DNA from: Escherichia coli
Lineage (GTDB): Bacteria; Pseudomonadota; Gammaproteobacteria; Enterobacterales; Enterobacteriaceae
Assembly (NCBI RefSeq): GCF_003334785.1
Contig: NZ_QOWV01000016.1
Direction: 5' to 3' (one strand)
Length of the DNA stretch: 64,000 bases
The notes below the pieces were generated by a model. That model searched no databases, was not told the DNA's origin, and saw only the letters and a list, made by a program, of their open reading frames with translations. Positions within the stretch are counted from its first letter, which is position 1; each line of letters opens with the position of its first letter. Below are positions 131-11,430 of this stretch, in pieces. Made by a program: the position numbers and the translations under genes.

Positions 131-495
131 GGTGTAGGGCCTTCTGTAGTTAGAGGACAGTTTTAATAAGTAACAATCACCGCGATAAACGTAACCAATT
201 TTTAGCAACTAAACAGGGGAAAACAATTACAGATTTTTATCTTTCGATTACGATTTTTGGTTTATTTCTTGATTTATGACCGAGATCTTACTTTTGTTGC
301 GCAATTGTACTTATTGCATTTTTCTCTTCGAGGAATTACCCAGTTTCATCATTCCATTTTATTTTGCGAGCGAGCGCACACTTGTGAATTATCTCAATAG
401 CAGTGTGAAATAACATAATTGAGCAACTGAAAGGGAGTGCCCAATATTACGACATCATCCATCACCCGCGGCATTACCTGATTATGGAGTTCAAT
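131..495. promoter_or_regulatory. Divergent xylF/xylA control region (XylR- and CRP-dependent promoters expected)
   Basis: 365-bp AT-rich intergenic region between divergent xylF and xylA; TGTGA-containing CRP-like half sites present (e.g. gtgtgaaataacataattga). Exact XylR sites not resolved by eye. Confidence 0.5.
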
Positions 496-6863: not shown

Positions 6864-8933
6864 ATGTCTGAGAAAACTTTTCTGGTGGAAATCGGCACTG
6901 AAGAGCTGCCACCAAAAGCACTGCGCAGCCTGGCTGAGTCCTTTGCTGCGAACTTTACTGCGGAGCTGGATAACGCTGGCCTCGCACACGGCACCGTTCA
7001 ATGGTTTGCTGCTCCGCGTCGTCTGGCGCTGAAAGTAGCTAACCTGGCGGAAGCGCAACCGGATCGTGAAATCGAAAAACGCGGCCCGGCGATTGCCCAG
7101 GCGTTCGACGCTGAAGGCAAACCGAGCAAAGCGGCAGAAGGTTGGGCGCGTGGTTGCGGTATTACCGTTGACCAGGCTGAGCGTCTGACTACCGATAAAG
7201 GCGAATGGCTGCTGTATCGCGCCCATGTGAAGGGCGAAAGCACCGAAGCACTGCTGCCGAATATGGTTGCGACTTCTCTGGCGAAACTGCCGATCCCGAA
7301 ACTGATGCGTTGGGGCGCAAGCGACGTGCACTTCGTGCGTCCGGTGCACACCGTGACCCTGCTGCTGGGCGACAAAGTCATTCCGGCAACCATTCTGGGC
7401 ATTCAGTCCGATCGCGTGATTCGCGGCCACCGCTTTATGGGCGAGCCGGAATTCACCATCGATAACGCCGATCAGTATCCGGAAATTCTGCGTGAGCGTG
7501 GGAAAGTCATCGCCGATTACGAAGAACGTAAGGCGAAGATTAAAGCCGATGCCGAAGAAGCAGCGCGTAAGATTGGCGGTAACGCTGACTTAAGCGAAAG
7601 CCTGCTGGAAGAAGTGGCTTCGCTGGTGGAGTGGCCGGTCGTTCTGACCGCAAAATTCGAAGAGAAATTCCTCGCGGTGCCGGCTGAAGCGCTGGTTTAC
7701 ACCATGAAAGGTGACCAGAAATACTTCCCGGTGTATGCGAACGACGGCAAACTGCTGCCGAACTTTATCTTCGTTGCCAACATCGAATCGAAAGATCCGC
7801 AGCAGATTATCTCCGGTAACGAGAAAGTCGTTCGTCCGCGTCTGGCGGATGCCGAGTTCTTCTTCAACACCGACCGTAAAAAACGTCTTGAAGATAACCT
7901 GCCGCGCCTGCAAACCGTGTTGTTCCAGCAACAGTTGGGGACGCTGCGCGACAAAACTGACCGCATCCAGGCGCTGGCTGGCTGGATTGCTGAACAGATT
8001 GGCGCTGACGTTAACCACGCTACCCGTGCGGGTCTGCTGTCTAAGTGCGACCTGATGACCAACATGGTCTTCGAGTTCACCGACACCCAGGGCGTTATGG
8101 GGATGCACTATGCGCGTCACGATGGCGAAGCGGAAGATGTCGCGGTGGCGCTGAATGAGCAGTATCAGCCGCGTTTTGCTGGTGATGACCTGCCGTCCAA
8201 CCCAGTAGCTTGTGCGCTGGCGATTGCTGACAAGATGGATACCCTGGCGGGTATCTTCGGTATCGGTCAGCATCCGAAAGGCGACAAAGACCCGTTTGCG
8301 CTGCGTCGTGCCGCGCTTGGCGTGCTGCGAATTATCGTTGAGAAGAACCTCAACCTTGATCTGCAAACGCTGACCGAAGAAGCGGTGCGTCTGTATGGCG
8401 ATAAGCTGACTAATGCCAACGTAGTTGATGATGTTATCGACTTTATGCTCGGTCGCTTCCGCGCCTGGTATCAGGACGAAGGTTATACCGTTGACACCAT
8501 CCAGGCGGTACTGGCGCGTCGTCCGACTCGTCCGGCTGATTTCGATGCCCGTATGAAAGCGGTATCGCATTTCCGTACCCTGGATGCAGCTGCTGCACTG
8601 GCGGCGGCGAACAAACGTGTATCTAACATTCTGGCGAAATCTGACGAAGTGCTGAGCGACCGCGTGAATGCCTCTACCCTGAAAGAGCCGGAAGAAATTA
8701 AACTGGCGATGCAGGTTGTGGTGCTACGTGACAAGCTGGAGCCGTACTTTACGGAAGGTCGTTACCAGGATGCGCTGGTCGAACTGGCTGAGCTGCGTGA
8801 ACCGGTTGATGCTTTCTTCGATAAAGTGATGGTCATGGTTGATGACAAAGAATTGCGTATCAACCGTCTGACCATGCTGGAGAAACTGCGCGAACTGTTC
8901 CTGCGCGTTGCGGATATTTCGCTGTTGCAATAA
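6864..8933 (+). CDS. glyS: Glycine--tRNA ligase beta subunit (689 aa)
   Basis: [40 protein letters not shown]...; operon partner of glyQ. Confidence 0.95.
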
Positions 8934-8950
8934 TAACGCCGTTATTAAAT

Positions 8951-8977
8951 AGCCTGCCATCTGGCAGGCTTTTTTTA
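8951..8977 (+). terminator. Rho-independent terminator of glyQS
   Basis: agcctgccatctggcaggct followed by ttttttt, 18 bp after the glyS stop. Confidence 0.8.
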
Positions 8978-9211
8978 TCGCTAAATAATACAGCAACCTT
9001 TAATAATCTTCTGCTGAATAAAGATTATCTCATATATTAATTTTATGAGATTTTTTTAGGATTATATCAAGGAGAAGAAACAAACTTATTAAGCTAGAAT
9101 AGCCACGGGTGCTTGAGACTGTTTGTCTCAGGTATTCACCGAAAGGCAGACAGAGAAAAGCCCCACCTGACTATAAATCAAAGTTTGTACTGACCCCAAA
9201 AAGTTGGACAG

Positions 9212-10063
9212 TTAAACACGAGGCATATAGGTCTGATTCCGATATTCAATTGGAGTCAGACCTTTTAATTTCAGGCTAATTCTTCTGCTGTTGTAGTATT
9301 CAATATATTCCGTAACAGCATCCTTCAGTTCGCTTATATTACTGAACTCATCAAGATAAAAACACTCCGACTTTAAGGTTCCAAAGAAACACTCCACCAC
9401 AGCATTATCCAGACAATTGCCTTTTCTGGACATGCTTTGTTTAATACCATGTTCTTTAAGGATATTTTGATATCTTCTCATACGATACTGCCATCCCTGG
9501 TCAGAGTGCAGAACAGGATGCTCGTGAGGATTAAGCTTTTTGAATGCCTGATCGAGCATATTCTCAACCATGTTCATCACTGGTCTTTCCGAAAGGCTGT
9601 AAGAAATAACTTCGTTGTTGAAGAGATCTATTACTGGAGACAAATACAGCTTGCGCCCATTGACTGCAAATTCAGTAACATCGGTAACCCACTTCTCGTT
9701 TGGCCGCGTAGCCTTGAAATCTCTTTGGAGAACATTAGGGGCGGTTTGCCCTACCTCTCCTCTGTAAGAGCGGTATCGCTTGACCTTAATCGCTGCTTTA
9801 AGTGAGAGGGTTCCCATCAGGCGCTGAACAGCTTTATGGTTAATCTGTTTCCCTTCTCGATGAAGAGACAGCGTTACCCTACGGTATCCGTATCGGCCTC
9901 TATTCTCGTGATAAATCTCACTAATACGCTTTTTAACGTCCGCATACTTGTCAGGCTTGCTGAGAGCCTTTAGATGATAATAAAACGTACTGCGCGGTAT
10001 CTCCGCAGCCCTGAGAAGCTCATCAAGAGGATAAAACTGCCTTAGCTCGTTGAGTACTTTCAC
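9212..10063 (-). CDS. insK: IS150 transposase OrfB (DDE catalytic domain), 283 aa
   Basis: [32 protein letters not shown]... IS3-family integrase core; GTG start overlapping the orfA stop. Confidence 0.9.
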
Positions 10064-10581
10064 TTTTTCGTGGGATGAGCTAAGGCTTTCAGCTTTTTTA
10101 GATACATAAGCCGCGTTTCAAGAAATCGAACTTGCCTTTCAAGATCCTCAATGCGTCGGTCTTTTGACAGCTCCAATGCTGATGCCGCTTTTTCTGGATC
10201 AACTGATATTGCAATGTTTCTTTTGGTGCCAATCTTGAGCGCGCGTAAACCAGCTTCTCCGCGCTCTTCATAGACCTTCAGCCACCTGGCTACAGAACCA
10301 CTACCAGCAAGCATAAAGTGAGCAGCAGCCTGATTAAGGGACATGTGCTGCTCGATCACAGCTTTCACGACCTTAATACGCAACTCTGGATCAGCACTAA
10401 CGCCTTTAGGTTTGGGAATTAAACCTTTTTCTCCATGTTTTTCATAGAGGGCAACCCATGTCCTGACCTGGGTTCGGGGGACACCAAAACGTGCCGAGAT
10501 GATCCTGTAACCATCATCAGTTGTGAAGTAGTGATTCACGACTTCAAGGCGCTTTTCAAAAGGGTATTTTGGCTTTGACAT
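10060..10581 (-). CDS. insJ: IS150 OrfA (HTH DNA-binding), 173 aa
   Basis: MSKPKYPFEKRLEVVNHYFTTDDGYRIISARFGVPRTQVRTWV...; ends ...HPTKK* overlapping orfB. Confidence 0.9.
   Translation of the reverse strand: MSKPKYPFEKRLEVVNHYFTTDDGYRIISARFGVPRTQVRTWVALYEKHGEKGLIPKPKGVSADPELRIKVVKAVIEQHMSLNQAAAHFMLAGSGSVARWLKVYEERGEAGLRALKIGTKRNIAISVDPEKAASALELSKDRRIEDLERQVRFLETRLMYLKKLKALAHPTKK
10093..10099 (-). other. Candidate programmed -1 ribosomal frameshift heptamer (A AAA AAG) for OrfAB fusion
   Basis: Minus-strand A AAA AAG in the orfA frame, inside the region where the orfB frame is already open; a second A AAA AAG sits at the orfA stop (10063..10069). Which one is used cannot be decided from sequence. 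Confidence 0.5.
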
Positions 10582-10660
10582 ATTAGGGGCTATTCCATTT
10601 CATCGTCCAACAAAATGGGTGCAGTACATACTCGTTGGAAATCAACACAGGAGGCTGGGA

Positions 10661-10813
10661 ATGCCGCAGAAATATAGATTACTTTCTTTAATAGTGATTT
10701 GTTTCACGCTTTTATTTTTCACCTGGATGATAAGAGATTCACTGTGTGAATTGCATATTAAACAGGAGAGTTATGAGCTGGCGGCGTTTTTAGCCTGCAA
10801 ATTGAAAGAGTAA
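10661..10813 (+). CDS. hokA: Hok-family type I toxin HokA (50 aa)
   Basis: MPQKYRLLSLIVICFTLLFFTWMIRDSLCELHIKQESYELAAFLACKLKE: Hok/Gef fold (single TM, conserved C..SLCE.. core). The overlapping mok-like frame (ORF 10619..10813) begins inside the IS150 right end. Confidence 0.85.
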   Translation: MPQKYRLLSLIVICFTLLFFTWMIRDSLCELHIKQESYELAAFLACKLKE

Positions 10814-10943
10814 GAGTCTTCGGCGGGAAATTATTCCCGCCTTACTTACGGCGTTGCGCATTCTCATTGCACCCAAATTTATTCTTCACAAAAATAATAA
10901 TAGATTTTATTACGCGATCGATTATTTATTTCCTGAAAACAAA

Positions 10944-10973
10944 TAAAAAAATCCCCGCCAAATGGCAGGGATC
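10944..10973 (-). terminator. Rho-independent terminator of cspA
   Basis: Minus strand reads atccctgccatttggcggggat followed by ttttttt, about 27 nt after the cspA stop. Confidence 0.75.
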
Positions 10974-10999
10974 TTAGATTCTGTGCTTTTAAGCAGAGA

Positions 11000-11212
11000 T
11001 TACAGGCTGGTTACGTTACCAGCTGCCGGGCCTTTAGCGCCGCTTTCGATGGTGAAGGACACTTTCTGACCTTCGTCCAGAGATTTGTAACCATCGTTCT
11101 GGATAGCAGAGAAGTGTACGAACACATCTTTAGAGCCATCGTCAGGAGTGATGAAGCCGAAGCCTTTGTCAGCGTTGAACCATTTTACGATACCAGCCAT
11201 TTTACCGGACAT
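11000..11212 (-). CDS. cspA: Major cold-shock protein CspA (70 aa)
   Basis: [73 protein letters not shown]1/RNP2 motifs present. Confidence 0.97.
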
Positions 11213-11371
11213 AGTGTATTACCTTTAATAATTAAGTGTGCCTTTCGGCGATATGGCGTGCTTTACAGATTTTGAAGCGTTAAAGGAATGTGCACTACGA
11301 GGGGTATCAACGATAACTCTTGAAGGGACTTGCCTTACTACACTGCTTTAATGGTCTGTACGTCAAACCGT
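11213..11371 (-). promoter_or_regulatory. cspA 159-nt 5' UTR (RNA thermosensor, contains the cold box)
   Basis: Reverse complement begins ACGGTTTGACGTACAGACCATTAAAGCAGTG..., which matches my recollection of the cspA mRNA 5' end including the cold-box TGACGTACAGA; length to the ATG is 159 nt. Confidence 0.75.
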
Positions 11372-11430
11372 TGATGTGCATTAAGCCACGCATTGGCGGG
11401 TGATGCAACAATTATTTTTCATATTTATGA
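11372..11430 (-). promoter_or_regulatory. cspA promoter (-35 TTGCAT, -10 CTTAAT, upstream AT-rich UP element)
   Basis: Minus strand: ataaatatgaaaaataaTTGCATcacccgccaatgcgtggCTTAATgcacatcaA(+1). Confidence 0.65.

Follow-up and report, generated by a model that had tools for sequence, protein, structure and literature searches.

What remains of a type I toxin–antitoxin system after an insertion sequence has split it? The question is raised by the hokA locus in the 64,000-nucleotide stretch of Escherichia coli DNA analyzed here (contig NZ_QOWV01000016.1; the whole stretch is hereafter called the “window”), where an intact toxin frame lies on one side of an IS150 element and the leader of its mRNA lies on the other. 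Window positions 8900-11000 align with E. coli K-12 BW25113 at 100% identity. The window is the reverse complement of MG1655 near 3.72 Mb, and its positions equal 3731261 minus the MG1655 coordinate. After this conversion, the element coordinates coincide with the NC_000913.3 annotation, and hokA, mokA and sokA (b4455, b4647 and b4614) are identical to those of MG1655 in both sequence and mapped coordinates, with no difference. With high confidence, the locus is the hokA/mokA/sokA type I toxin–antitoxin relic of E. coli K-12, disabled by IS150.

This arrangement is already annotated and published, and is a textbook K-12 relic, as the initial annotation of this DNA had supposed. NC_000913.3 lists mokA and sokA as pseudogenes, K-12 hokA, hokC and hokE are described as “inactivated by insertion elements” (PMC12214031, PMC7232551), and MG1655 sokA is likewise described as IS150-disrupted (PMC11551753). 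All of these reports cite Pedersen & Gerdes 1999, to whom the IS150 inactivation of K-12 hokA/sokA is credited through the citing papers. To the known locus, we add what the 38 bp lost at the insertion contained, the finding that no target duplication is present, and how frequent the alleles are.

The split locus and the lost stem-loop

The anatomy and the homology of the locus, like the population distribution given below, are directly established. First, the toxin frame is complete. hokA occupies 10661..10813 on the + strand, starts with ATG and comprises 50 codons plus the stop, according to the open reading frame (ORF) list, RefSeq and NC_000913.3 alike; its Shine-Dalgarno sequence, AGGAGG (10649..10654, +), lies 6 nt 5′ of the ATG. 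The product, searched as a 64-aa frame, matches the Pfam family HOK_GEF (PF01848) with an E-value of 3.5e-21, residues 19-60 covering model positions 1-42 of 42. The intact frame and its Hok homology, both anticipated by the initial annotation, are thereby confirmed: an ORF of ~50 aa with a full-length profile match is a Hok/Gef toxin, and RefSeq names it HokA. The GC hairpin that had been noticed after the gene is also present, as the 3′ stem-loop cggcgggaaattattcccgcc (10821..10841, +; arms GGCGGGAA/TTCCCGCC), and forms in the predicted folds. Further downstream lies the fbi box GCACCC (10869..10874, +), the complement of the mRNA 5′ end GGGTGC (9107-9112).

Has this frame nevertheless decayed into a pseudogene that no longer encodes a functional toxin? 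This is hardly conceivable. The Pfam Hok/Gef match spans the full model, and both of the cysteines required for toxicity are encoded (PMC12214031; bioRxiv 10.1101/2025.08.07.668861). HokA amplified from MG1655 DNA has served as a toxic control on overexpression (bioRxiv 10.1101/2025.08.07.668861), which contradicts decay. We found no point in favor of it; the K-12 protein differs from that of O157 and N3 in only two residues, E38G and K47N. The Shine-Dalgarno sequence is AGGAGG in K-12, N3 and MS6198, and AGGGGG in O157 (window position 10653).

Second, the interrupting element is IS150 of the IS3 family, 1443 bp in length, located at 9186..10628 with its right inverted repeat (IRR) at 9186 and its left inverted repeat (IRL) ending at 10628, as determined by alignment and in NC_000913.3. 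Its transposase genes lie on the − strand: insJ/orfA (173 aa; 10581..10060) and the overlapping insK/orfB (283 aa; 10063..9212), which RefSeq labels as an IS3-like element IS150 family transposase with a programmed frameshift. The size of ~1.44 kb, the imperfect TG...CA terminal repeats (TGTACTG.../...CAGTACA in the alignment) and the orfA/orfB pair with its programmed −1 frameshift all agree with IS150. The 3–4 bp target-site duplication expected of this element is absent, as the flanks read ...AAAGTT and TACTCG..., and 38 bp are missing between them.

In order to reconstruct the uninterrupted locus by the comparison with IS-free strains that had been suggested, we aligned the intact alleles of O157:H7 OK1, strain N3 and MS6198 to both K-12 flanks. 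K-12 reads ...ATCAAAGT-T-IS150-TACTCG..., while the ancestral sequence reads ...ATCAAAGT-GAGGCCCCTCTATGTATAGACACCATAAGGTTAGCCTC-T-TACTCG.... IS150, in the reverse orientation, thus occupies the place of 38 bp (GAGGC-N28-GCCTC), and this missing segment is exactly one stem-loop, starting with GAGGC and ending with GCCTC. In the intact allele, the stem-loop carries the mokA Shine-Dalgarno sequence (GAGG), the ATG and the first 8 codons of mokA, and the translated MokA is a protein of 70 aa (MYRHHKVSLLLVGNQHRGLGMPQ...) in frame with HokA. In O157, N3 and MS6198, the mok frame has both a Shine-Dalgarno sequence and a start codon; K-12 has neither, and only codons 10-20 remain there. The K-12 mokA pseudogene (b4647; 10629..10813, +) accordingly begins with a remnant of ~11 codons (...LVGNQHRRLG; 10629..10660, +) in frame with hokA.

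The longer frame that overlaps hokA, a 64-codon ORF with a GTG start (10619..10813, +), consists of GTG-CAG-TAC-A, contributed by the IS150 IRL, and of mokA codons 10-20 and hokA, which continue in the same frame. The alignment with the intact alleles therefore supports the earlier reading of this frame as what is left of mokA, with IS150 sequence in place of its start. Its GTG does lie within the terminal repeat of the element, at the left end (the IRL, next to orfA) instead of the right end to which it had been assigned. A sequence scan found no Shine-Dalgarno sequence 5′ of this GTG.

What has happened to the antitoxin gene? The 3′-terminal 35 nt of the antisense RNA survive in the sokA pseudogene (b4614; 9150..9184, −), and with them the U-run and the terminator stem GCCUCAC/GUGGGGC. 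In the intact allele, the antisense strand reads TTGATT-17 nt-TAACCT, followed by the SokA 5′ end. Their resemblance to the R1 Sok promoter (TTGCGC-17-TATCCT) leads us to take these boxes as the putative promoter of sokA. On this analogy, the candidate −35 box TTGATT survives as an orphan at 10640..10645 (−), while the −10 box TAACCT lies in the deleted 38 bp together with the putative start site and ~21 nt of the 5′ end. sokA would thus be split three ways: the 3′ 35 nt to the left of the element, the −10 box, start site and 5′ end deleted, and the −35 box to the right. No antisense Sok gene with a promoter is found at the K-12 locus, only 9150-9184 and the orphan box at 10640-10645. A complete mok frame and sok promoter located entirely to the right of 10628 would have overturned the initial annotation; that side holds only mokA codons 10-20 and the orphan −35 box. 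Its other expectation, that the promoter, leader, mok start and sok lie on the far side of the element or are lost, was correct for the leader, which is on the left (9107-9185). The mok ribosome-binding site and start are deleted rather than displaced to the left, and sokA is divided as described.

The left-hand part of the leader comprises its first 79 nt (9107..9185, +), with the tac sequence GGGTGC (9107-9112), the tac stem-loop and the upstream complementary region as assigned by Rfam, and is identical to the intact O157 allele. Rfam model RF01794 matches 9107..9246 at 70.1 bits, with confident alignment (PP *) up to the IS junction and its 3′ half on IS sequence; on the intact O157 locus, the match is full length at 119.6 bits. 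Since its consensus spans GGGUGCUUGAG to the hok AUG, this model, named “sok”, describes the sense-strand leader. Weaker Rfam matches (STnc370, the rnk leader and others) fell below the gathering scores and lay on terminators, and were disregarded. A candidate hokA −10 box, TAGAAT (9095..9100, +), lies 6 nt upstream of the predicted mRNA 5′ end, with a poor −35 box: a relaxed scan gives AGGAGA-19-TAGAAT, placed according to the start of the Rfam leader model.

We then folded the reconstructed mRNA of 365 nt. Its minimum free energy structure (−130.9 kcal/mol, z = −6.7) pairs nucleotides 1-6 (GGGUGC) with 358-363 (GCACCC), which is the tac/fbi closure, and sequesters both the ribosome-binding site and the AUG of hokA through a long helix formed with the 3′ coding part (~10776-10797). 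The same sequestering helix and the 3′ hairpin are predicted for the K-12 right-hand fragment alone. The reconstructed mRNA thus has both tac and fbi, and in K-12 they lie on opposite sides of the element; therefore, they cannot share one transcript of normal length.

The uninterrupted locus closely resembles the R1 hok/mok/sok system. Both encode a membrane toxin of ~50 aa with an upstream overlapping mok frame; in both, the leader starts with GGGUGCUUGAG and has a tac stem-loop, and the 3′ side of the mRNA has a stem-loop and an fbi box that is the complement of the 5′ end; and in both, an antisense Sok gene runs across the mok ribosome-binding site. In contrast to R1, the K-12 locus is interrupted by IS150 and has neither the mok start nor the Sok promoter and 5′ end. 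A further difference from R1 is that the intact chromosomal mokA is in frame with hokA. Even the intact chromosomal hokA, that of E. coli C, is described as not mediating post-segregational killing (review text in bioRxiv 10.1101/2025.08.07.668861).

Expression of hokA in K-12

How would the two arrangements be expressed? In uninterrupted strains, we propose that one mRNA of ~365 nt starts at GGGTGC and carries the 70-codon mokA in frame with the 50-codon hokA, and that its GCACCC end pairs with the 5′ end. From the opposite strand, a SokA RNA of ~57 nt would be transcribed across the mokA ribosome-binding site.

In K-12, the weak hokA promoter (TAGAAT) and the 79-nt leader would read into IS150. 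On the hokA-sense strand within the IRR end, a consensus scan places a terminator-like hairpin at 9229..9263 (+), with 15 pairs followed by a T-run. The transposase genes are on the other strand, and the hairpin could terminate transcription coming into the element from the hokA promoter. The hokA ORF, the 3′ hairpin and the fbi box would be left 1.4 kb away without a promoter of their own, a strict scan for sigma-70-like promoters giving no site that faces hokA, and the hokA ribosome-binding site would still be locked in the predicted helix with the coding region.

Because IS150 replaced the 38 bp, the intact hokA ORF lacks its promoter, tac and mok-coupled translation. SokA cannot be made, as the −10 box, start site and 5′ recognition end were lost with the same segment. 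The importance of the mok coupling, on which the initial annotation had relied, has experimental support in R1 hok, where Hok is no longer translated once the ribosome-binding site or start codon of mok is mutated, or early stops are placed in mok (PMC9841398). In the same system, the tac stem is required for the active mRNA conformation, and the counterpart of the 3′ stem-loop protects the truncated mRNA (PMC9841398). Severed from both its promoter and mok coupling, the toxin is most likely silent: from the anatomy, we infer that K-12 does not produce it, and that hokA is a translationally, and probably transcriptionally, silent toxin gene without an antitoxin. The earlier prediction of silence is in this respect retained. 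Its proviso, that transcription reading out of IS150 might awaken the gene, does not hold for ordinary read-out, which cannot drive hokA because the IS150 transposase is transcribed away from it.

Could hokA still be expressed in K-12 by another route, from an outward promoter in the IS150 IRL or by read-through on the + strand, free of mok and Sok control, with its own AGGAGG site serving for HokA translation or with the 64-aa chimera as the product? Several observations weigh against complete silence and would favor this possibility. A relaxed scan finds a promoter-like site, TTGACA-17-TTTCAT (10575..10603, +; 10/12 matches), which lies within the IRL end and faces hokA. The gene has its own consensus ribosome-binding site, AGGAGG, 6 nt from the ATG. 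The ysaE–hokA pair is given as overlapping convergent transcription, an excludon called from RNA-seq coverage, as is yncP–hokB (PMC12288877), and some hokA-strand RNA may accordingly exist in E. coli. In every K-12-type record inspected, the ORF is annotated as intact hokA, and the allele occurs in ~1,640 genomes; together with the toxicity of the peptide on overexpression, this intact annotation is compatible with residual function or with recent inactivation.

We nevertheless consider residual expression very unlikely. At position 2 of its −10 box, the outward candidate is missing the near-invariant A, and it goes unreported in the stricter scan. The ribosome-binding site and ATG of hokA are buried in the predicted long helix with the coding region, and no Shine-Dalgarno sequence precedes the GTG at 10619. 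Moreover, selection should act against unrepressed Hok in the absence of Sok, but the allele persists stably in ~30% of the genomes. The literature also regards the locus as inactive. The perfect TTGACA of the outward site, we note in passing, overlaps the insJ start codon on the opposite strand.

The convergent partner, ysaE (b4793; 10790..10861, −), is a small ORF of 23 codons antisense to the hokA 3′ end and 3′ untranslated region. It is among the experimentally verified novel small ORFs, with high initiation-site ribosome counts (PMC8921622). The ysaE ORF is also annotated in strains with an intact hokA, and yncP, antisense to hokB (177..245 in the retrieved hokB locus L011), has the same placement relative to its toxin gene.

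The practical value of the locus is as a caution. The hokA ORF of K-12 and its derivatives should not be treated as half of a working toxin–antitoxin pair: SokA can no longer be produced, and activation through mok has been lost. The locus as found otherwise matters little; the wider pattern of IS150 in hok loci could matter more.

IS150 in hok loci and the origin of the K-12 junction

How widespread is the K-12 arrangement? Among 5,426 complete E. coli genomes, the left junction of the K-12-type allele occurs in 1,644, the right junction in 1,663, and both in one place in 1,640 (~30%); K-12 derivatives seen with this allele include BW25113 and HMS174. The uninterrupted allele, counted where the centre is covered by at least 80%, is found in 2,807 genomes (~52%).

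Partial centre matches in ~990 genomes (~18%) represent a second interrupted allele, hereafter called the “forward” allele. Here, IS150 lies in the orientation opposite to that in K-12, with the junction ...ATCAAAG/IS150/AAGTGAGG... (slashes mark the insertion here and below), an AAG duplication, and the 38 bp retained. Its junctions (L005 739, left; L006 702, right; L004 1000) are equivalent to window 9183/9184, and were matched in 1,133 (left) and 957 (right) genomes, figures that include some paralogous loci. The two independent IS150 alleles together account for ~48% of the complete genomes. In strain AMR2684 (L004), an additional IS1 lies nine bases further on, with the duplication AGGCTACCC.

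IS150 also recurs in the hok paralogs. At the position homologous to the forward hokA site, and in the same orientation, it is found in plasmid hok/mok with a CCA duplication (L007 498/1940), in hokC with an ACC duplication (L009 1943/3385), and in hokE with an ACCC duplication (L013 298/1740). The hokE junction was predicted by homology and was matched exactly in 539 genomes, though K-12 hokE reads TGGGGC instead of GAGGC. In hokB, the corresponding prediction of a junction at the GAGGC site was wrong: in 579 genomes, including K-12 HMS174, IS150 is found at the mRNA 5′ end (GCC/TGAGAC; L012 298/1740), 69 nt upstream of the predicted site. A second insertion in plasmid hok has the reverse orientation, at ...GCCTCTTAC/TAC..., which is the nucleotide of the K-12 right junction (L008 1941/3383).

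The insertions in hokE/sokE, hokC, hokB and plasmid hok fall, like that in hokA, within the overlap of the leader and sok. Those in hokC, hokE and plasmid hok use the homologue of the forward hokA site in the same orientation, with duplications of 3–4 bp. Unlike these insertions, which have normal duplications and keep the mok start, the K-12 hokA insertion is oppositely oriented, has no duplication and is accompanied by the loss of 38 bp. Woods et al. in 2006 reportedly described IS150 in hokB/sokB in the long-term experiment; the main text of Consuegra et al. 2021 makes no mention of hok. Elsewhere, sokE::IS150 has been found in more than 400 isolates (PMC11551753), and experimental evolution repeatedly yielded IS150 in hokC/nhaA, hokE and trg/mokB, which was read as the inactivation of redundant functions (PMC5419217).

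How, then, did the K-12 junction arise? IS150 insertion accompanied by deletion and without duplication is a documented class, comprising 14 of the 68 IS150 events in three populations of the long-term experiment (bioRxiv 10.1101/2024.06.02.596822). In these “Del-IS-Del” events, as in hokA, IS150 is central in a deletion without duplication, and the deletion sizes start from 14 bp (bioRxiv 10.1101/2024.06.02.596822). The junction sequences suggest that the K-12 hokA allele fits this deletion-coupled class, save for the single T at 9185. This lone T, which separates the sokA remnant from IS150 and falls outside both features in NC_000913.3, distinguishes hokA from the “Del-IS-Del” events, as does the fact that the deleted segment is exactly a stem-loop. 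It may perhaps be the first T of the ancestral TT in ...GCCTC-T-TACTCG; taken as an extra base, it fits no simple origin in either one step or two, which counts against the account of the locus given here.

A two-step origin would begin with IS150 inserted at ...GCCTCTTAC/TACTCG with a TAC duplication, followed by an adjacent deletion of the stem-loop; alternatively, two IS150 copies in inverted orientation, occupying both hot-spot sites (41 bp apart), would have been resolved to one. In favor of this, the K-12 right junction coincides to the nucleotide with the plasmid hok insertion that duplicated TAC (L008), and on the left, the breakpoint and the AAG site of the forward hokA allele (L005/L006) are 1 nt apart. 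The K-12 hokA haplotype is also nearest to that of a forward-allele strain. We still regard this origin as unlikely. The predicted precursor, a reverse IS150 at TAC with the 38 bp retained, is found in no chromosome among the complete genomes, and the sole match to at least 80% of the query is one plasmid hok locus. Neither route yields the junction ...AAAGT-T-IS without an ad hoc extra change, whereas one-step IS150 insertions with deletion and without duplication are documented (bioRxiv 10.1101/2024.06.02.596822). As for an IS-less allele lacking the 38 bp, none appeared among the best matches, which are all two-piece over the 121-nt query and represent intact alleles; rare one-piece matches are possible beyond these.

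Why does IS150 return to the hok leaders? We tentatively propose that it inserts in one set orientation at a short motif that it recognizes in the mok Shine-Dalgarno/dcb stem, a reading that we hold to be possible rather than probable against chance or selection alone. In the orientation of the element, the bases on the IRR side after the duplication are N-G-A/G-G-G/A-C in 6 of the 6 independent events with a preserved flank: AAG/TGAGGC in hokA (forward allele), CCA/CGAGGC in plasmid hok, ACC/CGAGGC in hokC, ACCC/TGGGGC in hokE, GCC/TGAGAC at the hokB 5′ end, and GTA/AGAGGC on the other strand of plasmid hok. Each strand carries the motif once, since GAGGC...GCCTC is an inverted repeat, and the stretch delimited by the two motif sites is precisely the 38 bp that K-12 has lost. 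The K-12 right junction lies at the nucleotide of one of the six events, while its own IRR-side flank has been deleted.

The recurrence of IS150 in hok loci was already known; the shared motif and the orientation rule are our reading of the flanks. For a general target logo, we scanned genome contigs with the 22-nt IS150 IRR end. Only 3 of the 122 matches were true IS150; the others belonged to related elements, for the most part from assemblies of Streptococcus, Alistipes and Clostridia. As the scan returned almost exclusively related elements of other phyla, the motif is a candidate drawn from hok loci. An “IR targeting” explanation, in which the target resembles the IS150 terminal repeat, was dropped as too weak.

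If the motif reading is true, hok/sok leaders are natural IS150 traps, which would account for the interruption of hokA by two alleles in about half of the sequenced E. coli. Parallel IS150 insertions in evolving hok/sok loci are usually read as selection for toxin loss. A sequence-specific target preference of IS150 would allow insertion bias to explain them instead. The one lead from this locus that we consider worth keeping is that IS150 appears to target hok leaders with specificity for both site and orientation.

Many assemblies of Streptococcus, Alistipes, Clostridia and Leptotrichia were also found by the scan to contain the exact 22-nt IRR terminus, CCAACTTTTTGGGGTCAGTACA, frequently where a contig ends. 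Internally, the elements bearing it are not IS150, which points to related IS3-family elements. Their outside flanks are often T-rich ~10 nt from the end, which resembles insertion beside terminators.

Flanking genes

The split locus lies between glyS, which ends at 8933, and cspA (11000..11212, −), both placed according to NC_000913.3. The cspA thermoregulator matches Rfam RF01766 over its full length (498 bits) at 10945..11372 on the − strand, over the cspA mRNA. The PGAP records name this gene inconsistently, as either cspE or cspA.

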